From Squalus acanthias (Eukaryota), in the NCBI GenBank assembly GCA_030390025.1, contig CM059432.1, forward strand, positions 94,304,001 through 94,368,000: DNA of 64,000 bases, given 5' to 3'. Both the position numbers and the translations under genes were made by a program. Below are positions 17,376-57,314 of this stretch, one piece after another (the first letter of the stretch is position 1; each line of letters begins with the position of its first letter). The notes beneath the pieces were generated by a model that saw only the letters and a program-made list of their open reading frames with translations, had not been told where the DNA came from and searched no databases.

Positions 17376-17489
17376 ATAGCCCCAATTCTCTGAGCTGCAA
17401 TCTCATATAGCAAGGCTCCACTCCGGGAACACAGCCTTTCAATTTTCCCTTCCAGAATTACAGCATCAGAAGACATAAGTATAAAATTA

Positions 17490-24055: not shown

Positions 24056-24360
24056 CATTGTATGGAGAGGGGTGCCGTCCTCATGGTCGACCAATCAGAA
24101 TGACCACACTAGACCAGCAGAAGAAAGCAAGCCCAATCAATAACAAGCAGCTCCAACAGGGCAAGTCATGGCAAAGGGCAAGCAGCATCCAACCATGATA
24201 TGGATAGAGAGCAGGGGCGGGTCTAGCATGTATTGTCGTGCAAGTCAACATTCTCAGCAATCACTCTGAAGACAAATTACGGCTCGCAACTGCTGGACAA
24301 AAACCTAAAAAACTGCGATGTGTTGTGTCTGATAAATTAAAGCCAGAATTCCAAACTTTC

Positions 24361-27764: not shown

Positions 27765-29690
27765 GTAGAATCATAGAATGGCTACAGCACAGAATGAGGC
27801 CTTCTGCCCGTCGAGCCCGTGCCAGCTCTCTGCAAGAGCACTTCAGCTAGTCCCACGCCCCGCCCTTTCCCTGTAGCGCTGCAAATTTATTTCCTTCAGG
27901 TACTTATCCAATTCCCTTTTGAAAGCCACGATTGAATCTGCCTCCACCACCCTTTTAGGCAGTGCATTCTAGATCCTAACCACTCACTGTGTAAAAAAGT
28001 TTTTCCTCATGTCGCCTTTGGTTCTTTTGCCAATCTCCTTAAATCTGTGTCCTCTGGTTCTCCACGCTTCCGCCAATGGGAACAGTTTCTCTCTATCTAC
28101 TCTGTCTCAACCCCTCATGATTTTGAACACCTCTATCAAATCTCCTCTCAACCTTCTCTGCTCTAAGGAGAAGAACCCCAGCTTCTCCAGTCTATCCACG
28201 TAACTGAAGTTCCTCATCCATGGAATCATTCTCCTAAATCTTTTCTGCACCCTCTCTAAAGCCTTCACATCCTTCCTAAAGTGCGGTGCCCAGAATTGGA
28301 CACAATACTCCAGTTGAGGCCGAACCAGTGTTTTATAAAGGTTCATCACAACTTCCTTGCTTTTGTACTCTATGCCTCTATTTATAAAGCCCAGGATCCC
28401 GTATGCTTTTTTAACCGCTTTCTCAACCTGCCCTGCCACCTTCAACAATTTGTGCACATATACCCCCAGGTCTCTGTTCATGCACCCCCTTTAGGATTGT
28501 ACCCTTTAGTTTATATTGCCTCTCCTCGTTCTTCCTACCAAAATGTATCACTTCGCACTTTTTTGTATTAAATTTCATCTGCTACGTGTCCGCCCATTTC
28601 ACCAGCCTGTCTATGTCTTCTTGAAGTCTATCACTATCCTCCTCACTGTTCACTATACTTCCAAGATTTGTGTCATCTGCAAATTTTGTAATTGTGCCCT
28701 GTACACCCAAGTCCAAGTCATTAATATATATGAAGAAGTGGTCCTGGTACCGACCCCTGGGGAACACCACTGTATACCTTCCTCCATTCTGAAAAACAAA
28801 CCGTTCACCACTACTCTCTGTTTCCTGTCACTTAGCCAATTTTGTATCCATGCTGCCACTGTCCCTTTTATTCCATGGGCTTCAACTTTGCTGGCAAGCC
28901 TATGATGTGGCACTTTATCAAACGCCTTTTGGAAGTCCATGTCCACCACATCAACCGCATTGCCCTCATCACCCCTCTGTGTTACCTCATCAAAAAATGG
29001 AATCAAGTTAGTTAAACATGATTTGCCTTTAACAAATCTGTGCTGGCTTTCCTTAATTAATCCACACTTGTCCAAGTGACTGTTAACTTTGTCCCTGATT
29101 ATCATTTCTAAAAGCTTCCCCACTACCGAGGTTAAACTGAGTGGCCTGTAGTTGCTGGGTTTATCCTTACACCCTTTTTTAAACAAGGGTGTAACATTTG
29201 CAATTCTGCAGTCCTCTGGCACCACCCCCGGTATCTAAGGAGGATTTGAAGATTATGGCCAGTACCTCAGCAATTTCCTCCTTAACTTCTCTCAGCATCC
29301 TAGGATGCATCCCATCTGGTCCTGGTGACTTATCTACTTTAAGTACAGACAGCCTTTCTAGCACCTCCTCTTTATCAATTTTTATCTCATCCAGTATCTC
29401 CACTACCTCCTCTTTCACTAAGACTTTGGCAACATCTTCCTTGGTGAAGACAGATGCAAAGTACTCATTTAGTACCTCAGCCATGCCCCCTGCCTCCATG
29501 CGTAGGTCTCCTTTTTTGTTCCTAATCGGCCCCACCTCTCCTCTCACTACCTGTTTATTATTTATATGCCTATAGAAGACTTTTGAATTCCCTTTTATGT
29601 TAGCTGCCAGTCTATTCTCATACCCTCTCTTTGCCCCTCTTATTTCTTTTTCACTTCCTCTCTGAACTTTCTATAGTCAGCCTGATAAAG
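27765..29690 (-). mobile_element. CR1 LINE, second subfamily, 5'-truncated
   Basis: ORF pieces 28107..29547 (KSPGPDG, NYRPLSLTS, DFQKAFD, FADD) and an (ATTCT)-type tail. Confidence 0.92.
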
Positions 29691-29741
29691 CATGAACAAT
29701 GGAATTTTATCTGAGGTAAACAGCACAGCAAACATGTAAGT

Positions 29742-30187
29742 TAGAAACATAGAAACTAGGAGCAGGAGTAGGCCATTTGGCCCGTCAAGCCTGCTCCACC
29801 ATTCAATACGATCATGGCTGATCATCCAAATCCAGTACCCTGTCCCTGCCTTCTCCCACAGAATCCCCATCGAGCCTGCACCGACACATATCCCACCCTA
29901 TCCCCGTAACTCCACGTATTTAATTCCCCCTAACATATCCCATCCTATCCCCGTAACCCCACATATTTAATCCCCCCCTAACACTAAGGGTCAATTTATC
30001 ATAGCCAAATCAACCTAACCCACACATTTTTGGACTGTGGGAGGAAACCGGAGCACCCGGAGGAAACCCACGCAGACACGGGGAGAATGTGCAAACTCCA
30101 CACAGACAGTCACCCGAGGCCGGATTCGAACCCGGGTCTCTGGCGCTGTGAGGCACCAGTGCTAACCACTATGCCACCATGTTGCCC
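29742..30187 (-). mobile_element. HE1-like V-SINE, full length
   Basis: Minus strand has A box TGGCATAGTGG, B box GGTTCGAATCC, the V-domain and a CR1-derived tail. Confidence 0.9.
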
Positions 30188-30862: not shown

Positions 30863-31738
30863 GGAGGAAAAATTCGGTTGCTTTGTGCCTCCCGTTAGCG
30901 CCCTAAGAGGACGCTAATGGGGCGCAAAGCAACTAGCGCCCGGGCGCGGTGATGTTTACGCCGCTCGCAAAATTGACCAGACATTTTGCGGCGGCGCTAA
31001 ACACTACTGCCACGATCTACTGTGCCCGCAGATCGTGACGTCAGTCGAGCGTGCAACGCCCCGGACCGGATATTGAGTGGCGCACCCTGCCTTACCGCCT
31101 GCCGCTAGCAACGACAGGTTGAGGGGAGCGTTTTGCAGTCGGGAAGGGACTGGGGGAGCGCTATTTAAAGGCGACCACTTCCTGCCTTTTTTTGTCGGCG
31201 ACATTTTTGCACCACGCATTCTGAGAGAGAGAGACTTCTGGAGAAATTCAACGCTGTGTGAAGAAGTTTTGGGTACTGAGCAGCACTTTGCAGGTTCATT
31301 TTGATATGACCTTCCTTGTATCAATTTAGAAGAGACTATGGGGGCTGCACTCTGAGCTCTTTCCCTGGGACTCTCCATTGTTCTTTCCAGCAGAATTGAT
31401 GTACAGGTCTCTCCAGGCCGAGATTCAAGGCGCAATGAGCAGGATGTGGATGGAGAGCAAGATCGACCCTCCCCTTTAAGAACTGGCCGGCGCCAGTGTG
31501 TCTGTGTTCCATTGCTGACTGACATCACATGAGCTTCGCCAGCGCTCTGCGATAGCGCCTCGCTCCTCGGCGTTAGCGCCTTAAGAGAGGTGTGTAGTGC
31601 CTGATTTAGCGCTCCAATCACCTCCAGGGGCGATAGAAGCCAAGTTTGCAGTCGGAGGCGATAATTAGCGGCAGGCGCTAAACTTTGCGCCCGGGCGATA
31701 ATTGCACCCCAAACGGGGCGATACCGAATTTCTCCGCC
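30863..31738 (-). mobile_element. Harbinger-type MITE, family A copy 2
   Basis: Reverse complement of 12744-13632 along its whole length, with flanks TAA/TAT. Confidence 0.9.
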
Positions 31739-31875
31739 TATATCCCTTATCATGACGGAAACAGACATAACTGCAAGGCAAAATATTAATGTTTAAAGCT
31801 GTACTTAGAAAAATTGTTGGTTAAAACAAATCCATAATCTGGCTAATCTACTTTAATTTAGGTAATTAAAAAAAA

Positions 31876-32412
31876 TTCATTCTCAAGATATGGGCATCGC
31901 AACAAGGCCAGCATTTATTGGCTATGCCTAGTTGCCTTTGAGAAGGTGGCGGTGGGTCTTCTTGAAGTGCTGCAGTCCATGTGGTGAAGATATTCCCACA
32001 GTGATGTTCGGTATGGAGCTGGAGGATAATTTGGAGGTGATGGTGTTCCTATGCACCTGCTGCCCTTGTCCTTCAAGGTGGTAGAAGTCGCGGATTTGGG
32101 CGGTGCTGTCGAAGAAGCCTTGGCGAGTTGCTGCAGTGCATGCTGTAGATGGTACACACTGCAGCCACAGTACGCTGGTGGTGGAGGGAGTGAACATTTA
32201 AGGCGGTGGATGGGCTGCCGATCAAGCGGGCTGCTTTGTCCTGGATGGTGTCGAGCTTCTAAAGTGTTGTTGCAGCTACACCTATCCAGGCAAGTGCAGA
32301 GTATTCCATCACACGCCTGACTTGTGCCTTGTAGATGGTGGAAAGGCTTTGAGGAGTCAGGAGGTGAGCCATTCACCGCAGAACACCCAGCCTCTGACTT
32401 ACACTAATAGCC
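31876..32412 (-). mobile_element. 3' fragment of the same LINE family as 1296-4436
   Basis: Aligns by eye to about 1305-1895, including the tail GCATTTATTG...TGAGAAGGTGG. Confidence 0.88.
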
Positions 32413-32817
32413 AGATAAATTTACTTGTCAGATAAATGTAGACATATGTGACTTTTCTTGAGAAAATGGCCATTTTCTGAACATTCTGCCAATTTGATAC
32501 TGTAGCTGCCAGCTCTTCAAAACCACCATCGTGACTAAATAAAAGTAGGGGCTTAAAATTCAATTAGGCATGAAAACCAACGCGGGGATCACGATGCACG
32601 ACCTTTGTGGTGCCTGCTAATTACCATGATTGCTGCGTTCAGCCCAGCGCTTAGCGCGTTGCCGAGTGGCTGAGCGCTCAGCAGGGGGCCAAAGATTGCT
32701 AGCTTTAAATAGAGCTAGCCTTCACTTCTTAAAGGCAGTCTGCACCTCTTAAAGGTGAGGTGCATTCTGCATTCAGCAGCTGCTTGAACTGCTTGTGAAG
32801 GCAACTGTGAGTGAATA

Positions 32818-34701
32818 ATGACTCAACAGGGCAGAGAAAGAGCCCCAAGGATCTCTGACGCAGCACTCGAGGCCTTAGTGTGGGGGTAGATAGGAGGAGA
32901 CAGATCCTCTACCCGCAGGGCACTAGGAGGCCCTCCAGACACACAGGAGAAGGCAGTGGAAGCAGATAGCTGAAGCGGTCACAGCTAGCAGTCTTACCCC
33001 GAGGACCTGGATCCAGTGCTGAAAGAAGGTCAATGACCTAACACGAGTGGTCAAGGTCAGTGAATGCATCGTCAAAAGCTGTCTCCCACCAACTGCACCA
33101 CTAGCCTCGCACACTGCTCAATGCACCACACCACCATCACTCACCTACCAACAATCTGTATCAATCACGACTCATACCTCACAGTCATAGCTTCATGTCA
33201 CCCTCATACACTTACCACTTCTGAAAGCCTCACACCCAGATCACACACCTTGCACAAACTGACAGCTATTCAACCATAACAGGCACATCACCCAAACACA
33301 TTGCACTACACTCACTGACACACTTCCCTTTCGCTTGCAGGCAAAGGTGGCTCATAATCGCAGGCAGTAGCAACTAACCAGCAGGGACAAGCCTACATGT
33401 CCTTACCCAGGTGGAGGATACTGTGCTTGACATCATTGGAGGAGCCGTCACGGAGGCCGTGGGGGACGGTGAGGCTGAAACCATTCAAGATGACGGTATG
33501 CTCATACCTAATCCTCCTTCTCACATCCCACTACCCCATCATCTCACAATCTCTTCTCACTGGCAAACTGCTGATGGTGTAAGCATGCACATGTTGCTTC
33601 TCCTCGCCTCCCGTCACCACAACCCTACCCTTGTGCCTTTCTCCTTTCAGATACCCAAGAACTCCAACCTGATGAGCCAGTGCAGGAAGAGGAGAGTGAT
33701 GGAGAAGAAGAGATACCGTCACTCGATATGACACTTGCAGGCACCAGCTCAGATATTGGCACTGCGTGGACTTTAGCGGGTAGTATAGAGGCAGGATCTG
33801 CATGTGGTGAGTCACCGGGCACGAGAGGCCTGCAGGAAAGAAGGGTAGCGAGGTCTCACACGAGTTCTGCTGCAGAGGACTCAGATGAGGACTTCGATGG
33901 GGCAGCCTACAGAAGAAGGCTGATGGGCATGCACACAGAAATGCTTGGTGCATTGGCAGGCCTGCCAGAAAGCCTGTTGTCACTGTCAAGGAACATGGAG
34001 GAGTCCAGCACCAACTTTGAACAGGGCTTTGCGCAGAGCTTGGAGCCCATGATTTCCAGGATGGAACTGATGGGCAGCTCGATTAGCGCACTTGCGGATC
34101 CAACAATGATGCAGTGTCTAATGGCCGATGTCTCAGCTTCCATAACAGCACAAGTGGAAGCGACCCAATGTCTGAGTACTACAGTGGAAGCTCAGACTTC
34201 TGTCATACAAGCTCAGACTGCTCTCATGCAGGCTCAGCTTGCTGCCATGCAAGCTCAGACTACTGCCATCGTTGCTGCGTTTACCAGTGTTGAAAGAGGC
34301 TTGCAAGATGTCACAGCAGTCCAGCAATTTGTCCTCCAACAGATTACTAGGATTGCTGTGGCGCCGCCCCAGCGGAGTGGCAGTGGCTCCGTGGAGCACG
34401 AACCTGCTGTCCTCTCTCAGGATGACAGTATTCGCCTTCCCACCACTCCGCCAGTGTCCTTTCTGTTGCCTGTCAGCCAGCTAGCCCAGACATTGCTGCC
34501 GCCATGCTGAGGTGGTGTCGTCCGCTGCCGGACCTTCTAGGCCTAGAGCTGCTCGAGGTCATCCTGCAAGGCCATCTGCAGTCTCTCCCACTGAAAGTCA
34601 GCAGCCTTGCTGCAGCCACTGGGGTAGCACTTCGTAGGAGCACTAGGACAGGCAAAGGCACACGTAAGACAGGCACTAAGGAAATGCACAAGGGTGATTA
34701 G
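32818..34701 (+). pseudogene. Harbinger Myb/SANT-like DNA-binding protein gene, three exons (32818-33055, 33341-33495, 33651-34701), disrupted
   Basis: Reads MTQQGRERAPRISDAALEALV...WKQIAEAVTASSLTPRTWIQC*KKVNDL. GT-AG introns have pyrimidine tracts. The last exon is acidic then coiled-coil-like (ORF 33680..34510). Confidence 0.75.
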
Positions 34702-34870
34702 TTGACTTTGTTATGTAAGATTGGATTCATTGATTTATAAATTTGGTTTGGAATGGTTGTTTTGTGGTGGCTTTCATTTCAGCTTTGTGGCCAAGCGGAT
34801 GCTGTGATGTTCCATGACAGATGGATGGTAAGGTGGGGAAGTGTTGAGCAATAGGGATCTGGGGTTTCAT

Positions 34871-35950
34871 TCAGGGGAACCGGAGTCTGATGATGCGCTC
34901 ACGGACAGCCCGTCCAGAATGTGTATGTGCAGGCTGCCTCCTCCCTTGCTCCTCCTCCTCCTGAGGTGGTCGTAGAACCCGTGGTGGCAAGGGCTGCACC
35001 CTCATGATAGCCAATTTGTGGAGGATGCAGCTGACCATCACGAATTGAGACACCTGCTCCGGCAAGTACTGGAGGGCTCCTCCCGAGCGGTCAAGGCAGT
35101 GGAACCATTGCTTCAGCACCCCGATGGTCTGCTTGATGACATTCCTTGTGGCAGCCATTATATGAGACTGGCCACGAGTGCTGGGGCTGCGGAGAGCAGT
35201 CATCAGCCATCTGTAAAGCAGATAGCCCTTGTCGCTGAGCAGCCACTCTCTGGTTTGACGTGGTGGCTAGAAGATTGCTGGCACAGCGGTCTGGTGCAGG
35301 ATGAATGCATCATGACTGCTGCCAAGATACTGGGCATTCACCAGCATGATGTGCTGGGCGTGGCCGCACACCAACTGCACATTAAGTGAGTGGTACCCTT
35401 TGTGGTTACGGTACATCTCATATTGAGATGAGGCGCTCGCAAAGCCACGTGTGTGCAGTTGATGGCACCCTGCACCAGGGGGAATCCTGCTATCCTGGCA
35501 AAGCCACGTGCACGCGCATCCTGCTTCTCTTTGTTTCGAGAGAAAGCAATGAGGTTCCCTCTCCTAGTGTACAGAGCCTCTGTGACTTCCCGGATGCAGC
35601 GATGGACGACAAACTGCGAGATGTTAGCTATCTCGCCTATTCCAGACTGGAAGGATCCTCTGGTGAGAAAATTCAGGGTCACGGTCACCTTGAGGGTCAC
35701 TGGCAGCGTGGTCGTCGCCCTGCTCTGAGGCTGCAGGTCTGGTTCCAAGAGGTGGCACAGTTCTGTGACCACCTCCTTGGTGAAGTGGAGCCGATGAACA
35801 CACTGCTTCTGTCTTAGGTGCAGGTAGGAGAAGTGGTCCTTGAAGACCCTCGGTGGGTAAGGCCTCCTGCTGAGAGCCCTCATCCTCCTCCTCCTTCTGC
35901 GAGCAGCTTGTCTTCTTTGCTGCCTCTGCTCCAGCTCCCTGTCATGCTGT
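34871..35950 (-). pseudogene. Harbinger (HARBI1-like) DDE transposase, frameshifted and catalytically mutated
   Basis: Motifs GFARIAGFPLVQGAINCTHV (D to N), WLLSDKGY and TRNVIKQTIGVLKQWFHCLDRSGGALQY (E to K). Confidence 0.88.
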
Positions 35951-38518
35951 GGCCCAGGGGGACTGCAACTAGAGCCCCCGTAACTGGGAGTAAGTGGTGT
36001 ACTCAGAGGCCTTCTCGTAGCCTTCCCAAAGTCCAGCAGCACTCCCTGCACACTTTAACTTTTGAAATCACTTACAGCAACCCAGTATCCCTACAAACTT
36101 TTCAAGAGCCAGTACAAAAGCAATAAGCAACATACCTGAAAGTTGGATATATCCCTTTAAGTAGCCCTGGTGGGGGTTCCCTCGTGCAGCTGAATGTGTG
36201 TGTTTAGGAGAGGGTGTTGAAGGGAGCATTAGAAAATGGCAGGTCGTGCATCAAATCAGCTTTACACGCTGACTGACGTCACGATCTGCCTACTGCATAC
36301 TGCCGGTGCACGCACATACCGCCCGCACCAAGATGGTGAACAGCACGGGCAGTGTTGGAAATGGGCGAACGCCATTTTTTTTAAATGCCAAAAGTACCGG
36401 CGCTACGGAGATGAATATCGCGGCTTACTTGTTTTAACCACAGTGGTTGATTCCTGAGTTTAATTTACACATGAAAGAAAGGAATGAGGAAATGTGCACG
36501 TGTAGCAAAAATAAAAGACATATAGAAAGTCAGACAACCTACATGGAAGGTAAAACACCTGGAGCTGTAGTGAAAATTGAAAATGCCTTCTCTCTCCGTA
36601 AAACACATGGATTTATTTATATATGTAACTGTGGTGTGTGAGGGAAACATATCATGGGTTAGAATTTCTGTAGGGGTTCTCGCCGTCTCCTGTCCCGAAT
36701 TTGGCAGGAGATCAGTGAAGCCCCGCAAAAATTGTACCTCTATTTATTTATCTACCTTGCAGTAGGTGAGGAATACACTATGGACCTGAAATTCCAGGGT
36801 GCCTGCTGCAAGTCTAGTTGGGTGTGTCTTCGGAATTCTGACAACTAAGGACATTGACTCTAACCTAAATCCCAGGATGGGGTCAGTTTAAAATCAGGCA
36901 GGTGGCAAGCACCTGCTGTGGCGTAACAGAGGCACTCATCCCAAATAGGTGCTGGAAAATCGCAGGGACACCCCTCTGGGATTGCTTACCTTTGTTGCTT
37001 GAGACATTTGGGGCTATGAGGAAAGCTCAGTATGTACGTTTGCTCTCAGCCGAAGGATGGCATATTGAGCAGAATTCCCAGGGCAACCCAGTAATGTTGT
37101 CCAGACTCACCCTCAAAGGTACCGACTGATAAAGACTATTCTCCCCCGGTTCATCGTGATTTCTGAAGAACCGTAAATGGGGTGGAAACCTGACGGATCC
37201 CAGTTTTGCCCAAATTCCTGCCATCCTGCGGGCGATCCTACTAACTTGCATCCACCCCAGGAGTTTCCAATTTATTTATTTTCGAAGCACTATGGAAAGA
37301 AAATAGGAATCTTCTTAGCCATCCATTTTCAGTAGGATCCTAAGAATTGGTGGTGAACTCGACATCTAGTAACTCCTCGGATAGGACGATCTGAGGTAAG
37401 TAAGTACCAACAGGTAAGCTGTTCTTCCAGGACCTATCAGATTTTTGAGGCTGGAGGTCTTCTAATTGCAACCATCAGTAAGACAGAAATAGAATCCATG
37501 TGGATAGAGATAAGAGATAAAAAAGGATCACTAATATGGGTAAGTCTACAGACCACCTAATAGTGGAAGGGAGGTGGAGAAAGAAATATGGAAACAAATT
37601 AGGGAGATGAGTAATAAACATAGAATAATAATCATGGGGATTTCAATTATCCTCAAATGAATTGGCCAAAAGAGGTAGGTAAACGGGATAAGGGAATGGA
37701 GTTCCTACAAAGTGTACAGGACTCCTTTCTAACCCAGTATGTAAGAAGCTCAACAAGGGAGGATTTGCTACTGGATCTGTTAATGGGGAATAAACCAGAG
37801 CAGATAAGAGAAGGAAAAGTAGATGAACGTCTCGGCATTAGTGACCATAATATTACGGTTAGGATAATAATTGAGAAGGACATATGCATGACAAAGACCA
37901 GGGTAATAGATTGGAGAAAAGCTGATTTTGAGGGGCTGAGAATAGAACTTGCAGAAATAAAATGGACAACAATATTGGCAAACAATGCTGTAGAACAGCA
38001 ATGGTATTCAGCAGAGCTCAGGAAAGATATATTCTGCTAAAAATCAAGAACTGAACACTAATGAGACATCACGGATGAATAAAGACATAAGGGAAAAATT
38101 GAGGGTAAGGAAAGGGACATACACTAAGTACATGGACAGCAGGGGAGAGCATGATGAGGGAGAATACGAAGCGATTAGGAAAGAAGTAAAAAAAAATTAG
38201 GAAGGCAAAGAGGAACTATGAAATTAAATTATCAAGGAACATAAAACAAAGTAGTAAAATATTCTACAGGCACATAAATAAAAAAAAGGTTAAGTCGGGA
38301 TGGGAATATGGCCACTAAGGGATGGACAGGATAAAATCACAGGTAGTGATAGTGAAATGACAGAAATATGAAATAATTATTTTGCTTTCGTATTTACTAG
38401 GGAGACAGTTGAGGTGGACATGACAGCAGAAAATGAGATTAGAAATGAGATAACTGCATTTAAAATAAAGAGGAGAAATATTAAATAAACTAATCAACTC
38501 AAAGAGGATAAAACCCCT

Positions 38519-40328
38519 AGGCTTAGAAATGCGATGCTTTAATGCTGGCTGTTAAGGCCAGTTTTGTAGAAAAAATGGCGGCCGCCTCGCTTCCTCCCAC
38601 TTCTGGTGCGGAACGAGACGGCCGCCACATTGAACAGGTCGGCAGCGCTGCTGTTGCCTGTGCTTGCCGCAAGTATTTTAATTACCAGGAGCGTGACATC
38701 AATCGGCGTGCAATTGACGCATGCTCTTCCATTTTAGAGCTCGCCGCTCCTCTTACTGCTCTCTCCAAAGCACGCCTGTGTGTGCAGCCGTTGACAGCGC
38801 ATAGAGCCGGGAGAAAGCGGCGGTGAGCTATAAACCCTACAGTAAACAGCTGCTGAGATAACTGGTAACTATGGAGAGCTCAGACTACGTATTTGGAGTG
38901 AAAACTGCTTCCAATGAGATGCATCAAATCTTCCCCGGTCAGTCATACATTACAAGAGGTAAATACTTTTAACATAAACTATACTGTACTACAGTTGTAA
39001 TAATCTCAGGAAAAAAATAAAACTGCATTTTCTCAAATTTTATACAATGGGTTTTCTAGTTTAGGGACTGATAAAATAAGATGCAAAGTTTGGAAGTCTG
39101 TTTTTAAAAGGCTTAACACCATATTCTCAGCAAGAGTTCTTCAAAAGTCTGCTGTTGTTAAAAATGTAATTGAACTCTTTTCTGCATGATTTACACCAGT
39201 AAATTCCTATTTTGAAATTTATTTCAATTGATTTCTCATGCAATGGTTTAAGGACATCTATGCCACAGTCTTTATGTGCTTTTTCTAGTCACAGTCTCTC
39301 CAGATCTGGCCTGTGCTTTAAGACCCACTCACCAGGGAGTGAATCCCCTATGTGATATGCAGGCTAGTGCACTTTTTTATTCATTCACGGGATGTGGATG
39401 TCACTGACAAGGCCGGCATTTATTGCCCATCCCTAATTGCAGAAGGTGGTGTTGAGCTGCCTTTTTGAATACAACTGAGTGGCTTGCTAGGCCACTTCAG
39501 AGGGCAGTTAAGAGTCAACCACATTGCTGTGGGTCTGGAGTCACATATAGGCAGATTACCTTCCCTAAAGGACATTAGTGAACCAGATGGGTTTTTACGA
39601 CAATCCGGTAGTTTCATGGTCACCATTACTGATACTAGCTTTTTAGTCCAGATTTATTTAATTATTTGAATTGAAATTCCCCAGCTGCTGCAGTGGGATT
39701 TGAACTCATGTGTCCGGATCATTAATCCAGGCCTCTGGATTACTAGTCCAGTAACATAATCACTATCCTGCCATACCGTACTGTCACTGCTAGCTGCAAG
39801 ACGGTGCATCCCCATCCCCCTCCAGCACCATGGTGGAGCACAAATCTCCACACAGCAACCATCTGGGTGGAACATTTGCGGACCTAAGGCAGCCAGTGAA
39901 GGTGGGAGTACCAGGCAGTCTGGTACTCAGTTGTGGACCCTACACAAGACCCAGACAAATGTCCAAGAAAGTAAGAGGGGGGGGCATGGACAAACAAATG
40001 CCTCTAATGTGCCACAACGGTCAATGTTCCAACCCTACAAGGGCCATCAGCAGACTCATACCTCCTGACCGAGCAAAACCCAGGAGCCGTCACCAAATGA
40101 TCTGAAACAGCACACTGCCCGAGAACGCTGCACCGATCCTTTAGACACAACCTTCGGCCTCCTGCTGAGGTTACCGCCGGCAAGAGTGCGTTGCACAAGA
40201 GATTCTGTGCTCTGCTTATGTAAATCAGCAGGCAGTATCGGTGCTGCCTGCGCTCTTTTTGCTGGCGGCCATTAACCTCGACGTGCGGTGGCACTGCCAC
40301 TTTTCGGCCTAATTGAATTTCTAGGCCC
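38519..40328. mobile_element. Non-autonomous Harbinger-type element inserted in CR1
   Basis: Termini AGGCTTAGAAAT / ATTTCTAGGCCC resemble the MITE at 10341. It interrupts the CR1 KTPGPD motif, and the TSD is unclear. Confidence 0.6.
39373..39781 (-). mobile_element. tRNA-headed SINE equal to the two ends of the LINE at 1296-4436
   Basis: 39373-39469 matches LINE 1296-1400 and 39470-39781 matches LINE 4110-4436. B box GTTCAAATCC is retained. Confidence 0.9.
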
Positions 40329-43300
40329 CAGTACAGACAGATTGCATTCGCACATATGAAAAGAATCTATGGCACTATTACACATATTTAATAATTCTTT
40401 AGAAAAGAGGTGTAGTGTCAGAGGGCTGGTAGATAGCTAACGTTATATCTATATTTAAGAAGGGAGGTAGAATATGTTCAGGGAACTATAGACCAGTCAG
40501 CTTAACATCGGTAGTAGGAAAAATAATGGAATCCCTACTAAAGGAGAAAATGGAAAAACATCTAGAAACCAAAGATATAATATTGAATGGTCAACATGGC
40601 TTTCAAAAGGGAAAGTCTTGCTTGACCAACCTCATAGAATTCTTTGAAGAGGTAACAGAGAGAGTAGACAGGGTAATGTAGTAGATGTAATATATCTAGA
40701 TTTTCAAAAGGCCTTCGCTAAGGTACCACATAATAGACTAATGAATAAGGTCGAGCATGCAGAGTAAGGGGACAATTAGCAGAATGGATAGGTAGCTGGC
40801 TGAAAGGGTAGCTATTCAGAGTGGCAGAAGGTAGGAAGTGGGGTCCCACAAGGATCAGTGCTGGGACCACTGTTGTTCACAATTTATATTAATGAATTAG
40901 ACTTTGGAATCAAAAACACAACTTCTAAATTAGTGGACGACACCAAATAGGGAAGGACAGTCAACACTGAGGAGTACTGCAACAAATTACAAGAAGACAT
41001 TAATAAACTTGAAGAATGGGCATATAATTGGCAAATGAATTTCAACATAGATAAGTATGAGATATTACATTTTGGTAAGAAAAATAAGGAGGTCACATAT
41101 TACTTGGAAAATAAGAATCTAAATAGGGTAGTGGAGCAAAGGGATCTGGGAGTACAAATACACAAATCACTAAAAGTTGCGACGCAGGTCAATAAGGCCA
41201 TAACAAAAGCGAACCAGGGAATAGAGTTTATTTTTAGAATTGAAAAGTAGAGACGTTATGCTAAATTTGTATCAAACCTTGGTTAGACCACACTTGGAGT
41301 GCTGTGTGCAGTTCTAGTCGTCATATTATAAAAAGGATATAAAGGCACTGGAGAGGGTGCAAAAAAGATTTACAAGGATGATACTAGAACTGCGAGGTTG
41401 TACCTATCAGGAAAGGATGAACATGCTGGGTCTTTTTTCTCTTGAAAAGAGAAGGCTGAGGGGTAATCTAATAGAGGTCTTTAAAATTATGCAAGGCTTT
41501 GATAGAGTGGATACAGAGAGAATGTTTCCACTTGTGGGGAAGAGCAAAACTAGAGGCCATCAATATGCGACAGTCACCAAGAAATCAAATAGGGAATTAA
41601 AAAAAAACTTCTTTACCCAGAGAGTGGTGAGAATGTGGAACTCGCTACCATAGGGAGTAGTTGAGGCAAATAGTATAGATGCATTTAAAGGGACGCTAGA
41701 TAAGAGGAGGAGTAAATAGAGGGTTACGCTGATAGAGTTAGATGAGGAAGGATGGGAGGAGGCTCGAGTGGAGCATAAACACCAGCATGGACTGGTTGGG
41801 CCGAATGGCCTGTTTCTGTGCCGTATATCCTATTGCTGTACTCCAATAGTAGCCAAAAGGCCCCTGAAGCCGATGGTTAATCCCACTCCTGCATGCCCAT
41901 CAGGTGTGCAGCTGCGCCTCATTTTCTTCCCTCAATTTCTAGTGCAAGGCCCGTCCAGGGGTCAGACCTGCATCAGGGCCAAAGTGATGACCTGGCCCGC
42001 CAAATTAGGACACACCTTGGCCTGCACAGACGGAGTGAACTTCTGGTGTGCTTCACCTGTCTAATGTCGGGGCAAGGTGGTTGGCTGGGGGGGAAGGGGG
42101 CAGGAAAGGAAAGGCATATCAAGGCCATACAATCTTCAGAGAGAGGATACTTTCATTCCATAAACCTGGGCTAGATGGAACCCAGATCCCTGTGCTTAAA
42201 GGCAAATGCTTTATCTCACTGCATCAAACAGTCCCCAGACAGAACACCTTTAAATTATTCAATGCAAATATGGATACATAAAATTAGATAAGAAAATTAA
42301 TAGAAAATATTGACTACACAGGAGTATTCATAAAGCAGAAGCCTCATGAAAGGGTTCAGATGAAATAAACCATAAGCTAAGGTCTAATAAGAGATTACAG
42401 GCATGAAATCACCCCGTAATATATGTTATTTTTCTTATATATAATATATACTATCTTTATATGCCAGCTTTATTTAGTTGGAGATCAGTTTTTATCATGT
42501 AGCAGCTGTCACTGTGCTCCATGTTGTCGATGTGAAATGAATTTTACACTAACAGGTTAAAGACTGTGGTGTAATTACTGCAGGTTTATTAAGAAACAAT
42601 CTGCAGTTGATTATGAGCAAATTTTATGTCCAGCATAAGTAATTCAAGGGTAAACAAGAGACCATTCCCACATTAATCATAACATTTAATACTCTCATGA
42701 GCCAATCAGAATAAAAAATGGGCTTCCATCAGTCCAGTGATTCCAGGGAGCTGACTGTGAACTAGCTCAGCTCTAAATCATACGGCCTGCCTAAGAAATA
42801 TTTTTTCTTGCTGACTGATTATTATGACCCACATTCAGCATGATTGCTCTCTGCTGCCAAGTATCCTGTAGAAATTTCAATAAGGTTACTAATTATGTGG
42901 CCATGAAACGTGTCATTTAACACAAATTGCTCATTTTCAATGGTTTCTGACACCCCATTAATTTTTCTAAAAGCAATACAGTTGCATTATGTGAGTCTGT
43001 TACCTTATTTTACACATTATATTTGTTCCACAAATAATGTACATCATAATTATATAATGGAGTACTATACAGTAGAACATTGAGCTGTAACTTTTAAATA
43101 AAAGATTCCGATTTTGTTAAAATTCAGAAATGCTTAATTTTCTTACACTGGTTTCATGGAAAGCACACTATGATTCCTCTTTTTTAACTGTATTTATTTC
43201 TATCTATCACAAATGCTCTCTGCCAGAGGCAGCAATTTGTGCTCAGGTAAAAGTACAAGATATTAGCGCGTGCTGCAGTTAATTGAAAATTAGCTACTAC

Positions 43301-46300: not shown

Positions 46301-48267
46301 TACAGCAACTCAAGCTCCGGAGATTGAGCGGCGGCTGGAGTCACTGCGGTGCATCCGCGAGGCTGAGAGTTACGTGGATAGCACGTTTCTAGAGGTGGTC
46401 ACCCCGCAGCTTAAGAGTTTGCAGGCAGAGAGGGAATGGGTGACCACCAGACAGAAGAGGAGGACCAGGCAGATAGTGCAGGAGTCCCCAGCGTGTATCG
46501 CGCTCTCCAACCAGTATTCTGTTCTGAGTACTGGTGAGGGCGATGGTTCCTCTGGGGAGTGCAGCCAGAGTCAAGTCCATGGCACCACGGGTGGCTCAGC
46601 TGCACAGAGGGGGAGGAAAAAGAGTGGAAGAGCAATAGTGGTATGGGATTTGATAGTTAGGGGAGCAGACAGGCGTTTCTGCGGCCGTAGACATGACTCC
46701 AGGATGGTATGTTGCCTCCCTGGTGCCAGGGTCAAGGATGTCACTGAGCGGCTGCAGGACACTCTGAGGGGGGAGGGTGAACAGCCAGAGGTCGTTGTCC
46801 ATATTGGTACCAACGACATAGGCAGAAAGAGGGATAAAGTCCTGCAGGCAGAGTTTAGGGAGCTAGGAGAGACATTAAAAGCAGGACCTCAAAGGTAGTA
46901 ATCTCCGGATTACTCCCGGTGCCACGTGCTAGTGAGTACAGGATTAGGAAGATAGAACAGATGAAAGATTGGCTGGAGAGATGGTGCAGGAGGGAGGGCT
47001 TTAGATTCCTGAGGCATTGGGACCGTTTCTGGGGAAGGTGGGACCTGTACAAGCCGGACGGGTTACACCTCAACAGAGCTGGGACCAATATTCTCGCGGG
47101 GAGGTTGGTTAGTGCTGTTGGAGAGGGTTTAAACTAACTTGGCAGGGGGATGGGCACCAGCATATAGGAGTAGCAAAGAGGAATAAGGTGTCAAGGATCG
47201 CAAGCTTCAACAACTCTTGGACACCAACGCCCCTCCGGAACCTTCTTCCCCTTCACTTTCTCTGACCCCCCTTCTCCCAATCTCATCCCCTGCCGCGTTT
47301 TCACTATCCCCTCTGACCTTCCCCTCTCTGACTCCGAACGATCAGTCCTCAGCAAAGGCCTGAGCTTCATCCCCTTACACCCCCACCTCAATGAATTTCG
47401 AGCTCGGCACGATGCTGAGCTCTTTTTCCGCCGCCTCCGTCTCCGTGCCCACTTCTCTGGCCAGGAGTCTTCCCCCCGCACGGCTGACCCTTTCTCCCGC
47501 TTTCAGAATTCTCGTTCCACCTGGACCCCTCCCTCTGGCCTCTTACCCTCTCTAGATCTTTTCATTGCAAACTGCCGCCGTGACATTGGCCGTCTCCATT
47601 TCTCTGCTCCCCTCTCTCACTCCAACCTACCTCCCTCTGAACTTGCAGCACTCCATTCTCTCAGATCCAACCCCGACATTGTCATTAAACCTGCTGACAA
47701 GGGTGGTGCTGTTGTTGTTTGGCGAACCGACCTCTACCTAGCGGAAGTTGAACGCCAACTCTCCGACACCTCCTCCTACCTCCACCTGGACCATGACCCC
47801 ACTACAGAACATCAAGCCACTGTGTCCAAGACTGTCACTGACCTCATCTCCTCTGGAGATCTTCCCCCCGCGGCCGCCAACCTCATAGTTCCCCAACCCC
47901 GCACAGCCCGCTTCTACCTCCTTCCCAAGATCCACAAACAGGACTGCCCTGGTAGACCCATCGTTTCAGCCTGCTCTTGCCCCACGGAACTTATCTCTTC
48001 CTATCTCGATTCTATTTTTTCTCCCCTTGTCCAGTCCCTTCCCACCTACATCCGCGATTCCTCTGACGCCCTCCGCCACTTTAACAGTTTCCAGTTTCCT
48101 GGCCCCAACCGCCTCCTTTTCACCATGGACGTACAATCCCTCTACACCTCCATCCCCCACCAGGATGGCCTGAGGGCGCTCCGCTTTTTCCTTGAACAGA
48201 GGCCCGACCAGTCCCCATCCACCGCCACCCTCCTCCGCCTGGCTGAACTTGTTCTCACATTGAACAA

Positions 48268-48461
48268 TGTCGTAAGAATGAGCCTTACGCGTGGTGAACT
48301 TAAAGTAAGCTTTAATCAACTAAAAAGGTGCTACATACAAAAGAGGTCTTACTCTATGCCTCTCCAGGATCCAACTGCTCAGTCCAGTATTTATCCTGGA
48401 CTAATCACAGGAAGTGATGCAATAAAGTTCGAGTCACAGGAAGCTGTATTGTGTTACCACA
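48268..48461 (-). repeat. 3' LTR of Gypsy
   Basis: Identical by eye to 52515-52708. Confidence 0.97.
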
Positions 48462-48479
48462 TTCTCCCCCCCCAAAAGA

Positions 48480-51400
48480 TTAGGAGGCCGGGATGCTCCC
48501 TCCATTTCGTAGCCGCCGGACGAGGGAGAGCCGCACCCGTTTGGGTTCTCGTAGCGGTAGAGGGCCCCTAGCCCGTTTACCCGCCGCGGGCCGTGGACCA
48601 GAGTCCGAGTGATCCAGCCCGCTCTGAGGGGGGTCAGGACGATCCTGACTGTGTACTGGTGCCCGAACGGGTGTCGGGCAGGGCTGTGGCAGATCCGTTT
48701 CCGAGCGTATGGTACGGGGTGGATCGTGGCTGCGCGTGCGAGCCCCGACGGGCTCATAGTCAGTCTGCCCCAGGTCGGCACGCTGGAGTGAGGTACCAGC
48801 CGGCGTCAGATCCAGATCGTGATGAGAGGCACCTGGCGAGCCCAGAGATGTGCCTGGTACAATATCATCCCCTGGTGTCCCTCTATGTTTCGGCGGGCAG
48901 GGAGCCAGATCCCGCAATGACACGGTAGATTCCCGACCGTCAGGATACCGAATATAGGCGTAGGTAGGGTTGACGTCAGTGAGCTCAACCTCATCTACCA
49001 GGGGGTCATTCTTAGACGCCCGGACATATCTTCGGAGTAGCACTGGTCCCGGTGCAGTCAGCCACGACGGGAGAGATATCCCATAGGATGAGCGACGCTG
49101 AAATCGGAAGAACCGTTCATGAGGCGTCGTATTTGTGGCGGTCGAAAGGAGGGACCGTGTGGAGTGTAATGCGTCTGGAAGTACTGCTTCCCATTGCTGG
49201 TTGGGTAGGCCCCGAGATCTCAAAGCCAGACGTACCGCATTCCAGATGATAGCGTTAAAACGCTCGACTTGCCCATTCCCGACCGGATGATAAGGCGTCG
49301 TTCTGCTGGCAGCAATACCCCGTTCCGAGAGATAGGCCTTGAGTTCTCCTGACATAAAAGAAGGGCCCCGATCCGAATGAACATAGGATGCCATGCCACA
49401 GAAAGCAAATACCTGCTCAAGGCAGCTGATAACCGTGGTCGTCAGCATATTGGGGCAGGGAAAGGCAAACGGAAAACGGGAATACTCATCGACCATGGTC
49501 AATAGATAAGTGTTGCGAGTTGAAGAGGGCAACGGCCCCTTAAAATCGATGCTAAGCCGTTGCATTGGCTGGGTCGCATGTATGAGTATACCACCCGAGG
49601 GGCGGAAAAACTGAGGTTTCAATTCCGCACAGACTCTGCAGTCCGAGCACATCTTCTTTACATCCCCGGTAGAGAATGGGAGATTTCGGGACCGCACGAA
49701 GTGTAGCATGCGAGTAACGCCCGGATGACACAACCCATCATGGATGTCTACGAGTGTAGAGGGTGCCATGGCGGAGCAGAATGCTCGTGTGAGGGTATCC
49801 GGAGCCACATTCTCCTTGCCAGGTCGATAGTGGATGGTGTAACCAAAAGAGGCCAATTCCAGCCGCCAAAGCTGGATTTTATTATTTTTAATTTTGGTCC
49901 GTTTTCGATTATCGAGCATGAAGGCGACCGATCGCTGGTCCGTGATTAAGGTAAAGTGCTGGCGAGCTAGGAGATGAGTCCACTTCCGTACTGCCTCTAT
50001 GATGGCTGTAGCTTCTTTCTCGACTGGAGGATAATGTAGCTCAGCCCCTTGAAAAGTCCTGGACAAAAATGCCACCGGACGACCTTCCTGATTCAGAGTG
50101 GCCGAGATCGCCACCTCCGAGGCATCACACTCAACAACAAAAGGAAGACTCTCATCGATGGAGTGAAGAGCCGCTTTCTCCAACTGTTTTTTCAGGAGGT
50201 TAAAGGCTGCAACAGCCGCTGTGTCTAGTGGGAATGTGCTGGCCTTCAGTAGAGGTTGGATTCGGTCAGAGAAGTTAGGAATCCATTTAGCATAGTATGC
50301 AAACAGGCCGAGGGCCCGGCGCAAGGAGGCCGGATTCTTAGGTGGCGGGAGCTCTTGGAGTGGGCGAAGCCTTTCAGGGTCAGGTTTAATGATGCCATTG
50401 CCCACACAATAGCCAAGGATGTTGATGGTTGGTTGTGACTCAATGGATTTAGCCGCATTTAATGTCAAATTACGGTGCTGGAGTGCATCCCAAAATCGTT
50501 GGAGATTGGCGTCATGTTCCCGCTGATTGCGACCTGCGACAGTAATATTGTCCAGATAAGGAAACGTATCCTTCAAATCTTCCTGTTTGACCAGGTCATC
50601 CATTGCTCGCTGGAAGACAGCCACTCCATTAGTGACCCCAAAGGGGAGGCGACGAAATTGATACAGCCGTCCATTGGCTTCAAAGGCCGTATACTGCTTG
50701 TCTGAGACCTTCAAGGGTACCTGATGATAGGCACTTTTCAGATCATATGTTGAGAACACCGTGTACTCAGCCAGTTTATTAACCATATCATCGATGCGCG
50801 GCAATGGGTATGCGTCCAAGTCCGTATATTGATTGATGGTCTGTGAATAGTCAATGCACAGCCGTTTCTTGTGAGGTTGTAGAGGGTTCTTAACAATAAC
50901 GACCTGGGCGCGCCATGGCGACGAACAAGGCTCGATGGTATCCTCTACTAAAAGCCGAGAAATCTCAGCCGCAATAAAAGACTGGTCTTCCTGACTGAAA
51001 CGTCGTGACTTTGTTATAATCGGTTTGCATCGAGGAGGAATACTGGTAAACAGTGAGGGTTCATCCAGTGAAGCTGCTGACAATGCACAGAACGGTAATC
51101 GAGGTCGTATATTAGAAATAGTGAGTTCAGGTTTGGATCCGCCGAACTCAATGGTGAGTTTCTTATGCTGCTTTTGAAAATCCAGCCCTAAGATAAGATC
51201 ACTACATAAGTCCTTGAGCACCGAAAGCCGGGTGGAGGGATACCTGCGACCATTAAGTGTTATTTCAACCATACAAAAGCCAGAAATTCTGGTATTAAGT
51301 GATGACTGAGCCATCGCAATTGCCTGGTCCGATGGGAAAACATGTAGCTTTAACTCTGCAACAATCTGTTCCCTAATGAAACTATCAGTGCTACCTGAGT

Positions 51401-52436
51401 CAATTAAGGCATCTAAAGTATGTCCATTAATTGATGCTTTTGTAGCTGCATGGAATAGGTTCTGAGGACAAGCAGCTGTAATTGGTGTCGTTGCACAAAG
51501 AGTGGCTGAAACTCTAGGTGTGTTTCTTCGAGAGAAAACCCGAGAGGAAGCACGATAGATTTTAGCCGGAACATCTTGATAGGCCCTTACCGGGGCAGTT
51601 CGGTAGGACTTAGCTTGATAAGCCCTCGTAGAGGCTCTTGATAGGCAAACCTTTGCAAAATGACCCTTTTTGTTGCAATGACTGCAAAACGCATTGCGAG
51701 CAGGGCAGAATTTCCGAGGGTGAAACTCATCACCACAAAAGAAGCATTTCTTAGATTGCCAAGAGGCTGCCACAGTGGGGTCATCATCCTCTTCATCAGT
51801 GAAGTCATCAGATTGATCGTCAGGGATAAAGTCCTCCCTAATAGAGTTCACCTGTGGCCTCTTAAATTGCCTGACTGTAGTTAAGGCAGCAGACCGAGGT
51901 CTGGGCACTGTATAAAGGTCTGCATTTCTTTTTGCCAGATCTAGAGAGCAAGCCATGTCATAAGCTCTCTGAAGCTCAAGTGTCTTACTTTCCAGTAGAT
52001 GCTGGCGTATAAATGGGGAGGCAAGCCCGCAGATGAAAGCATCACGGATCATTTCTTCACGGTACAGCTCAGCTGAGGCCGCCTGAAAGTTACAGTCCAT
52101 ACTAAGTCTGCGAAGCTCTTGGAGGAATTTATCAATGGATTCCTCCGGCCCTTGTTGGGCTGTAGCTAGTAGATGTCTGGCATAGACCTCATTCGGTGTC
52201 TTAGTATATAGTCTTTTAAGCGTCCGAATTGCCTCCTCGTAACTGCCCCATTCCTCAACATACTGAAATACATTCGGAGTGACACAGTTGATGAGTATCC
52301 GCAACTTTGTGTCATCATCAGCCTTGCAATATTCGAGAAAATTGTCAAACGTGCGATACCAGTGTTTCCACACCTTACCGGCTGCTGGGGTGTTTGGTTC
52401 CAAGTCAAGACGCGATGGTTTAAGGATGTTTTCCAT
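48480..52436 (-). CDS. Gag-Pol polyprotein, 1318 aa (Gag with zinc knuckles, protease, RT, RNase H, integrase)
   Basis: Motifs CFFCGDEFHPRKFC/CSHCNKKGHFAKVC, LIDSGS, RLCIDY, LPFG, YLDN, CDAS..EKE..TDQ, HHCC, IDFKGP..SDRG..VERFN. The domain order is Gypsy-type. Confidence 0.96.
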   Translation of the reverse strand: MENILKPSRLDLEPNTPAAGKVWKHWYRTFDNFLEYCKADDDTKLRILINCVTPNVFQYVEEWGSYEEAIRTLKRLYTKTPNEVYARHLLATAQQGPEESIDKFLQELRRLSMDCNFQAASAELYREEMIRDAFICGLASPFIRQHLLESKTLELQRAYDMACSLDLAKRNADLYTVPRPRSAALTTVRQFKRPQVNSIREDFIPDDQSDDFTDEEDDDPTVAASWQSKKCFFCGDEFHPRKFCPARNAFCSHCNKKGHFAKVCLSRASTRAYQAKSYRTAPVRAYQDVPAKIYRASSRVFSRRNTPRVSATLCATTPITAACPQNLFHAATKASINGHTLDALIDSGSTDSFIREQIVAELKLHVFPSDQAIAMAQSSLNTRISGFCMVEITLNGRRYPSTRLSVLKDLCSDLILGLDFQKQHKKLTIEFGGSKPELTISNIRPRLPFCALSAASLDEPSLFTSIPPRCKPIITKSRRFSQEDQSFIAAEISRLLVEDTIEPCSSPWRAQVVIVKNPLQPHKKRLCIDYSQTINQYTDLDAYPLPRIDDMVNKLAEYTVFSTYDLKSAYHQVPLKVSDKQYTAFEANGRLYQFRRLPFGVTNGVAVFQRAMDDLVKQEDLKDTFPYLDNITVAGRNQREHDANLQRFWDALQHRNLTLNAAKSIESQPTINILGYCVGNGIIKPDPERLRPLQELPPPKNPASLRRALGLFAYYAKWIPNFSDRIQPLLKASTFPLDTAAVAAFNLLKKQLEKAALHSIDESLPFVVECDASEVAISATLNQEGRPVAFLSRTFQGAELHYPPVEKEATAIIEAVRKWTHLLARQHFTLITDQRSVAFMLDNRKRTKIKNNKIQLWRLELASFGYTIHYRPGKENVAPDTLTRAFCSAMAPSTLVDIHDGLCHPGVTRMLHFVRSRNLPFSTGDVKKMCSDCRVCAELKPQFFRPSGGILIHATQPMQRLSIDFKGPLPSSTRNTYLLTMVDEYSRFPFAFPCPNMLTTTVISCLEQVFAFCGMASYVHSDRGPSFMSGELKAYLSERGIAASRTTPYHPVGNGQVERFNAIIWNAVRLALRSRGLPNQQWEAVLPDALHSTRSLLSTATNTTPHERFFRFQRRSSYGISLPSWLTAPGPVLLRRYVRASKNDPLVDEVELTDVNPTYAYIRYPDGRESTVSLRDLAPCPPKHRGTPGDDIVPGTSLGSPGASHHDLDLTPAGTSLQRADLGQTDYEPVGARTRSHDPPRTIRSETDLPQPCPTPVRAPVHSQDRPDPPQSGLDHSDSGPRPAAGKRARGPLPLREPKRVRLSLVRRLRNGGSIPAS

Positions 52437-52514
52437 GATGGGTGATTCCCTGGATCCTTAGTTCCGAGTTCGTCCAAAAAGTTTGAGTGCGAAGTTTTTC
52501 AAAGTTGATTAAAT

Positions 52515-52708
52515 TGTCGTAAGAATGAGCCTTACGCGTGGTGAACTTAAAGTAAGCTTTAATCAACTAAAAAGGTGCTACATACAAAAGAGGTCTTACT
52601 CTATGCCTCTCCAGGATCCAACTGCTCAGTCCAGTATTTATCCTGGACTAATCACAGGAAGTGATGCAATAAAGTTCGAGTCACAGGAAGCTGTATTGTG
52701 TTACCACA
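52515..52708 (-). repeat. 5' LTR of Gypsy
   Basis: Identical by eye to 48268-48461. It contains a TATA-like GATAAATA inside a 7-bp hairpin and ATTAAA on the sense strand. Confidence 0.97.
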
Positions 52709-54206
52709 AACAACTTCTCCTTTGACTCCACTCATTTCCTCCAAATCAAAGGTGTTGCTATGGGTACCCGCATGGGTCCTAGTTATGCCTGCCTTTTCGT
52801 GGGATATGTGGAACACTCTTTGTTCCAGTCCTACTCGGGTCCCCGACCTCACCTCTTTTTCCGGTACATTGACGACTGTATCGGTGCCGTTTCCTGCTCT
52901 CGCCCTGAACTAGACAATTTCATTCACTTTGCCTCCAATTTCCACCCTTCCCTCACCTTCACATGGTCCATCTCCGACTCTTCCCTCCCCTTCCTCGACT
53001 TCTCCGTCTCCATCTCTGGGGATAGGTTATTGACCAACATTTACTACAAGCCCACTGACTCCCACAGCTACCTGGACTACACTTCCTCCCACCCCGCCTC
53101 CTGTAAGGACTCTATTCCCTTCTCCCAGTTTCTCCGTCTCCGCCGCATCTGCTCCGACGATGCCACCTTCCATACCAGTGCTTCCGACATGTCTTCCTTT
53201 TTCCTCAACCGAGGATTCCCCTCTACCGTGGTCAACACGGCCCTCGACCGTGTCCGTTCCATCTCCCGCACTTCTGCCCTCACCCCGGCCCCTCCCTCCC
53301 GGAACCACGATAGAGTTCCCCTTGTCCTCACCTTTCACCCCACCAGCATCCACATTCAACGGATCATCCTCCGCCATTTCCGCCACCTCCAACGTGATCC
53401 CACCACCAAACGTATCTTCCCCTCACCTCCCCTTTCAGCATTCCGTAGGGACCGCTCCCTCCGAGACACCCTAGTCCACTCCTCTATCACCCCCAGCACC
53501 CCTTCCCCTTCACCCGGCACCTTCCCGTGCAAGCGCAGGAGATGCAACACCTGCCCTTATACATCCCCCCTTCCCACTCTCCAGGGCCCCAAATACCCCT
53601 TCCAGGTGAAACAGTGATTTACTTGTACTTCTTGCAATCTAGTATACTGTATTCGCTGCTCACGATGTGGTCTCCTCTACATTGGGGAGACCAAACGCAG
53701 ATTGGGTGACCGCTTTGCGGAACACCTCCGTTCAGTCCGGAAGGGTGACCCCGAGCTTCCGGTCGCTTGTCATTTTAATTCACCCCTCCACGCTCACTCA
53801 GACCTCACCGTCCTCGGCCTCTTGCATTGTTCCACGGAAGCGCAGCGTAAGCTCCAGGAACAGCACCTCATCTTCCGTTTAGGCACTTTACAGCCTTCCG
53901 GACTCAATATCGAGTTCAACAATTTCTGATCATAACCCCGGCCCCTACCACATATGTATACATTTTATCCACTCTTTTGGTCCGTGCCTTTTTCCTTTTT
54001 TTCTCTCTCCCCCCCCACGGCAGCTGTCTCTGATTCTGCCAGCATTTCACACCTTACCTTTTGTTTCTCAACCTGTCCCATTACCATCTCGTCTTGCCTT
54101 GAGCATCTCTCAATTTCTCTACTCACTAAAGACCATCCCTTTTGTTCTTTTATTCCTCCCCCCAGCCTCCCCCTTGCATTTTTATCTGTTTATTTCTTGC
54201 TCTCTC

Positions 54207-57200: not shown

Positions 57201-57314
57201 ACTTGCAGGGCTACGGGGATAGAGCGGGGAATGGGACTGACTGGATTGCTCTACAGAGAGTCGGCACGGACTCGATGGGCCGAATGACCTCCTTCTATGC
57301 CGTTATGACTCAAA

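Follow-up and report, generated by a model that had tools for sequence, protein, structure and literature searches.

A shark SINE matching the two ends of a LINE with a tRNA head

In a 64,000-nucleotide stretch of Squalus acanthias DNA, which was analysed as a whole and is called the window here, an element of 405 bp looks like a tRNA-derived SINE and corresponds, from its head to its tail, to a LINE lying in the same window. This raises the question of whether such a SINE may be born when a LINE headed by a tRNA-like sequence loses its middle, or whether it was rather the LINE that took its head from a SINE. The features concerned are the following, all of them on the minus strand.

39373-39777, minus strand: SINE-like element of 405 bp, composed of a tRNA head, a body, a LINE tail and A6
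39693-39777, minus strand: tRNA-derived head of the SINE, with a degenerate A box at about 39770-39760 and a B box at 39705-39697
39470-39692, minus strand: SINE body, equal to the LINE 5' region 4351-4110, with about 7.5% substitutions and one 18-bp gap
39373-39469, minus strand: SINE tail, equal to LINE 1400-1299 (last 13 ORF codons, 3' UTR and oligo-A)
1296-4436, minus strand: near-full-length, decayed single-ORF LINE (endonuclease and reverse transcriptase, RT), Zenon-like by eye, with a tRNA head
4352-4436, minus strand: tRNA-derived head of the LINE (Rfam tRNA model), A box at 4429-4419, B box at 4364-4356
4110-4351, minus strand: LINE 5' region common to the SINE body
4016-4109, minus strand: LINE-only spacer with an ATG at 4080 and no remnant of a SINE tail
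1359-4015, minus strand: remains of the endonuclease-RT (EN-RT) ORF, interrupted by numerous small deletions and frameshifts
1296-1400, minus strand: LINE tail common to the SINE, with a stem-loop fold (z -1.87; 8 of 200 shuffles as good)
31875-32398, minus strand: second, 5'-truncated copy of the same LINE family, with about 9.5% substitutions in the RT end

When the element was compared with the window by BLASTN, 39470-39769 matched LINE 4110-4428 (84.3% over 319 columns, E 1e-102) and 39373-39469 matched LINE 1299-1400 (83.3% over 102 columns, E 1e-25); these matches meet at 39469|39470, leaving zero bases unassigned at the join. This bears out an earlier note on this DNA, in which the element was described as LINE 4436-4110 joined to 1400-1296 at a junction reading TTTGAA|TACAACTG on the plus strand, with head, body and tail all common to the SINE and the LINE (39777-39470 and 39469-39373 are indeed fully assigned). 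Two details had to be adjusted. The element stands, but its 5' end is more likely at 39777, opposite LINE 4436, than at 39781, identity being patchy there. The short TTG(A) homology proposed for both LINE breakpoints is real, though one base out of register: the LINE copy reads TTTGT at 4105-4109 and TTGAA at 1396-1400, while the codons of three related proteins (P0002, P0005 and P0046) would imply TTGA at the 5' breakpoint.

Relative to the window's LINE copy, the SINE has two gaps of its own (18 and 5 bp), and the LINE parts minus these gaps amount to 406 bp against 405 bp in the element, counted from a 5' end at 39777. Substitutions affect 31 of 300 positions in head and body and 12 of 91 in the tail, a difference which is not significant (Fisher p 0.45), and this divergence is close to that between the two LINE copies of the window (32/338). 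Within the first part, the tRNA portion is more diverged than the body (16/99 and 15/201, respectively; p 0.026), which could reflect a separate history. A search for target-site duplications of at least 7 bp gave none, be it for the SINE or for the LINE.

Of the properties by which SINEBase recognizes a SINE, the element has the following: it is shorter than 700 bp and non-coding, with stops in three sense frames; its head is of the Pol III RNA type, with a B box and tRNA arms; and it combines a LINE-like tail (83%) with signs of amplification, as the join is present at high depth in several sequencing runs. The SINE head has a 5-bp anticodon stem with an AGT loop, after which this arm is repeated in part (14 of 20 bases). 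Rfam gave only chance matches and no tRNA on this SINE copy, a protein search with the junction-spanning frame gave no match, and a 22-nt pattern from the body had 0 matches in genome, viral and metagenome contigs.

The head is more easily recognized in the LINE. There, the Rfam tRNA model matches 4429-4352 with 23.4 bits and an E of 0.017, which is below the gathering score of 29, and the alignment contains the D arm, an anticodon arm (AGT) and the T arm, the acceptor stem being lost; a 22-nt insertion is a partial duplicate of the anticodon arm. With default settings ARAGORN reported no tRNA in the 64-kb window, and with relaxed thresholds it called Ile(AAT) on the duplicated arm. Because of this use of the duplicate, the label rests on the Rfam alignment instead, and the AGT anticodon suggests that the head probably derives from a tRNA-Thr.

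The LINE itself has no ORF1, given that about 100 bp separate its head from the beginning of the endonuclease. The Pfam domain Exo_endo_phos_2 was detected with an E of 3e-5, below its cut-off, and the LINE aligns along full-length single-ORF relatives (P0056 and P0057) with 44-47% identity. It has the features of CR1-Zenon elements, namely a single EN-RT ORF, no ORF1, a length of about 3.3 kb and a poly-A end, and by eye it resembles Zenon-1_Hmel in the endonuclease, the AQVR region and the end of the ORF; judged by eye, it would thus be a Zenon-like CR1. An 8-base likeness of the body to the Zenon 5' UTR, also noticed by eye, was treated as chance. Since a class of CR1-Zenon-like elements appears in a whale shark preprint (bioRxiv 10.1101/443036), this LINE family is likely to be present in repeat libraries already. 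A search of the Atlas returned unnamed invertebrate clusters only, and a viral scan using the alignment found none. It needs to be mentioned that part of an element of this LINE clade is encoded by a 549-bp contig assigned to a cyanobacterial genome assembled from a metagenome (L017:85-456); this contig is probably animal DNA binned by mistake.

The window contains other repeats as well. A second tRNA SINE is present in two copies (14384-14789 and 29736-30159, 91% alike), which we take to be HE1-like; as a contrast to the element described here, it shares only a tail of about 120 bp with the window's other CR1 family, and nothing with the 5' part of that family. HE1, a V-SINE characterized by a V domain and an HER1-type tail, was considered as an identity for the 405-bp element and dropped; the latter has no match to the presumed HE1-like copies or to the CR1 tails of the window. 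Several CR1 subfamilies occur in many copies (6026-9446, 24360-27234, 27784-29857, 40408-41671 and 54573-59414), one of them with an open RT frame of 669 aa (7345-9354). An LTR retrotransposon at 48268-52708, presumably Gypsy-like, has two 194-bp terminal repeats with 100% identity to each other, and an open frame of 1325 aa is read from its minus strand; the retrotransposon sits inside a Penelope-like element (47174-53617) and is a very recent insertion. Transposon remains at 32500-36100 and 1-660, with a transposase on the minus and a Myb-like gene on the plus strand, are, as we assume from their translations, Harbinger-like, and serve below as a control with regard to T runs. A GC-rich repeat of 890 bp, which is unclassified, has three copies (12744-13632, 30863-31738 and 60779-61672; 83-93% alike) and fragments at 16691-17376 and 57307-58058, and there is a degenerate GC-rich tandem array at 23068-23614.

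Does the head belong to the LINE family, or merely to the copy in this window? Among 54 proteins compared with the LINE, three (P0002, P0005 and P0046) align across or into the head as well as to the endonuclease, and a further one (P0003) begins, by eye, with the peptide of the head frame; P0002, P0003 and P0005 are gene models of Rhincodon typus. Two other proteins with upstream sequence (P0001 and P0032) gave no match to the head. One paralogous contig of organism E (record 16) bridges 3909-4228 with 64 differences, and a similar MK.DG peptide starts in the spacer of several other LINE copies. In runs X1, X9 and X13, the first of which may be the window's own source sample, the summed contig depth, which is not copy number, exceeded that of the flanks by a factor of 24,000-79,000 where the ORF starts, rose a further 1.7-3.5-fold over the head, and fell to less than 1% of the head depth past it. 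We read these depths only as very many copies that end at the head, with heads in surplus. The head/ORF depth ratio was higher (6.7) in run X16, whose RNA nature is a guess, so that this ratio is not counted as a sign of expression. Of the six piles of loose ends listed per run, none lies at 4110 or 4436, which is uninformative. The head-endonuclease proteins, the organism E contig and the depth together uphold the view that the head is a property of the LINE family and not just of the window copy.

Among 17 related loci, only one, the distant full-length relative L001, has a 5' end that can be used for this question, the other 16 being unusable. L001 has no tRNA, no A/B box pair and seven T4 runs, and Rfam gave only chance matches on it. 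As L001 is headless, the head looks acquired, and it is likely, though on the thin basis of this single outgroup, that the acquisition took place in the shark lineage.

We then come to the join between the two LINE parts. The earlier note had held that a junction unique to this locus would speak for a local deletion after insertion; the join in fact recurs in other copies and other organisms. Among the 15 joints listed (there are 10,267 further joints, and counts are lower bounds), 11 link 4096-4148 to 1361-1422, and they are of several types. In 4 of 4 runs, which come from three organisms, the window-type join occurs in a form that is one base shorter (1396|4110), with a depth of 2738 against 14 in the flanks in X1. 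The exact join together with a nearby 15-bp loss (1400|TACAAC) was present in 3 of 4 runs, while an exact 1400|4110 row is absent among the 15 joints listed; high-copy joins may fall in contigs too short for anchoring. Joins shorter by 32 bp (at a 3-base homology) and by 33 bp were each found in 4 of 4 runs, one shorter by 59 bp was found, among the joints listed, in organism D only (depth 6995 against 13), and the joints listed include two other head-tail joins. As a separate observation, a subfamily present at high depth in organism D (run X9) is marked by the loss of 1 bp at 4147 (about 10% of the depth) and the gain of 1 bp at 4339, the loss being tied to the 59-bp shorter join; this subfamily is a lineage-specific burst.

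To the question of whether the junction is fixed or variable, the answer is thus neither: it is not single and not random, but takes several recurrent types among the 15 listed joints. On one hand, a single SINE may have given rise to the shorter joins by secondary deletion. On the other hand, two longer joins, 1408|4103 and 1422|4096, which are known by the join itself and may or may not carry the tRNA part, keep 7+8 and 14+22 LINE-only bases, respectively. Because LINE-only bases are kept on both sides, these forms cannot be derived from the window-type SINE, and either the LINE must be their source or the window type must descend from them. The several types of join, two of them of this kind, point to repeated deletion from the LINE.

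The correspondence of the SINE with both ends of a LINE headed by a tRNA is confirmed as a real, family-level feature. The order of events, including whether the head came first to the LINE or to the SINE, we can only infer. The account which we favour, with slightly better than even confidence, is that a headed Zenon-like LINE amplified and gave rise to SINEs by repeated internal deletion, the LINE probably being transcribed by Pol III. According to this account, a single-ORF Zenon-like CR1 LINE of sharks would have gained a tRNA-derived head; that it amplified with the head attached is shown by the head-ORF link in other copies. Such a LINE would carry an internal Pol III promoter at one end and a tail recognized by the RT at the other, and any deletion sparing both ends might therefore yield a working SINE in one step. 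The deletions would probably be template jumps at short homologies during reverse transcription; judging from the several recurrent joins, they would have occurred more than once, with several products amplified, and the element at 39373-39777 would be one copy of such a SINE.

Transcription of the LINE by Pol III from its tRNA head seems to us about as probable as the opposite. There are 0 T4 runs in 3132 nt of the LINE sense strand, where TTT reaches 0.37 and TT 0.72 of expectation; the SINE is similar (TTT 0.30), whereas TTT lies at 0.95-1.84 in 7 other LINE stretches of the window and at 1.05 in L001. On the same LINE strand A runs are normal (AA 1.0, AAAA 1.12), and on neither strand of the window is any T4-free stretch longer than the one covering the LINE at 1296-4436. 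Phe codons are scarcer in the LINE (11 of 762) than in two relatives (62 of 1893; p 0.008). Taken together, the two LINE copies of the window would be expected to contain 7.3 T4 runs at the rate of 8 related loci (Poisson P 0.0007) and 10.9 at the rate of the other window LINEs. The remaining tests are less clear: compared with dinucleotide shuffles, the absence of T4 lacks significance (0 vs 1.58, P 0.155), as does the codon test of NTT vs NTC in the LINE (p 0.35); the Harbinger-like control, of similar GC, is also T4-free over 1.9 kb with TTT at 0.62; and relatives with no known 5' end (L002, L003, L007-L010 and L014) are mildly T-poor, with TTT at 0.2-0.69. This pattern, drawn from one near-full LINE copy, fits Pol III transcription and is suggestive only. 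Such mixed results leave room for the alternative that the LINE carries its head as a passenger or as a Pol II promoter and that only the short derivatives are Pol III transcripts, which would agree with LINEs being held to be Pol II transcripts (PMC3531059). We find this alternative quite plausible, though somewhat short of an even chance, given that the depletion of TT and TTT is strand-specific and SINE-like and that the head is kept at the LINE 5' end across organisms. The fullest picture, that of a LINE family among the most abundant in sharks which is autonomous, transcribed by Pol III from a captured tRNA promoter, purged of T runs in its coding sequence and repeatedly spawning new SINE families by internal deletion, is offered tentatively, as a shade less probable still. 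If the LINE were indeed made by Pol III, its RNA would be uncapped and about 3.3 kb long, which raises the question of how it is translated, and the usual split between Pol II LINEs and Pol III SINEs would be broken.

With respect to direction, the earlier note had proposed deletion from the LINE or capture of a SINE by the LINE; we favour deletion over the capture of an unrelated SINE, and have added a third history. In that history the head would come to the SINE first: a headless Zenon-like LINE would give, by deletion, a derivative composed of 5' UTR and tail, like Persaeus, which would acquire a tRNA by template switch, following Kojima's model, and become a SINE, and a crossover inside the shared 5' UTR would then provide the LINE with a head, the body and tail still being LINE-derived by deletion. 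It accounts equally well for the exact boundary; every one of its steps has a precedent (PMC5786205 and PMC6740152); L001, whose 5' region has a similar length, lacks a head; and the greater divergence of the tRNA part than of the body (p 0.026) is a mild point in its favour. However, three events are required, and no consistent drop in depth between body and tRNA part marks a headless class (1.75M vs 1.78M in X1, lower in X9 and higher in X13). Moreover, the body bears no similarity to the 5' region of L001 (score 21; shuffles mean 23), which does not bear out a LINE origin of the body. We thus regard it as rather unlikely, while still the first to be considered after direct deletion with regard to the order of events.

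Improbable, in our opinion, is the capture by the LINE of the head and body of an older partner SINE, the body being of other origin and no deletion having occurred. Head and body are both missing from L001, a template switch could be directed by the short stretch of homology at the boundary, and exchange of modules is common (PMC5499810). Simple capture is nevertheless disfavoured, since the end of the shared part coincides exactly with the start of the LINE tail in the SINE: it would take a switch falling within a few bases of the body/tail boundary out of about 300 usable positions, which by our own estimate amounts to about 1-2%. No SINE base is unassigned, neither a remnant of the SINE tail in the LINE nor a SINE-only spacer was seen, and the longer joins with LINE-only bases exist. 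Local accidents, in which a SINE landed before a LINE truncated at 4110 or the copy at 39373 lost its middle, might be imagined in a window that is a dense nest of repeats and for elements whose ends are devoid of target-site duplications, but they are highly improbable, as neither the head-ORF link nor the head-tail join is confined to this window, each being present again in other copies and organisms.

Returning to the SINE as a probable deletion product of a headed LINE, one of the closest counterparts is Persaeus, the SIDE of a Zenon CR1 LINE in Lepidoptera (Wang et al. 2019, PMC6740152). In what is accessible of that description, the Persaeus type is likewise made solely of the 5' and 3' ends of its partner LINE, as is our element, but Persaeus has no tRNA homology or Pol III promoter, whereas here the LINE and its derivative are both tRNA-headed. 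Because it carries this head, the shark derivative is itself a SINE and was not filed as a SIDE. SINEs with bipartite LINE sequences, such as Bov-tA, AfroSINE, CoeSINE4 and others (Kojima 2018, PMC5786205), have the same combination of tRNA head, LINE 5' region and LINE 3' end; there, as far as the accessible text goes, it is the derivative that receives the head, and the partner LINE has none, while here the partner is CR1-like and headed. The same text reports LINE-derived SINE bodies only from RTE and Vingi, and no source for conserved SINE bodies. It also mentions LINEs with a tRNA-like sequence, RTE-1_DAn and elements related to it, which resemble ours in this respect but belong to another clade, and whose tRNA-like sequence is treated as a source of accidental matches. 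Among sharks, HE1 (partner HER1) and SacSINE1 (a DeuSINE) are tRNA-derived SINEs with a LINE-like tail, as here, though in the consulted portions of PMC3747384 and PMC5499810 only the tail is reported as common with a LINE, and not head and body too. An identity with SacSINE1/DeuSINE was rejected, as three core motifs of AmnSINE1/EbuSINE (PMC7245038) had 3-4 mismatches at best; alignments of SacSINE1 and L2-2_CM among the supplements of PMC5499810 could bear on the family label. Searches of the open literature, with Repbase, Dfam and SINEBase lying outside that scope, turned up no account of a tRNA-headed CR1/Zenon LINE or of its shark SINE, and prior cataloguing of both elements is possible. 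The origin of SINE bodies is an open question, and in the present case head, body and tail all map to one LINE, a single living family of the CR1 group with several independent-looking joins. The birth of a SINE thereby becomes testable by phylogeny in assembled shark genomes, and the comparison suggests that short repeats can arise in one step when a tRNA-headed LINE loses its middle.
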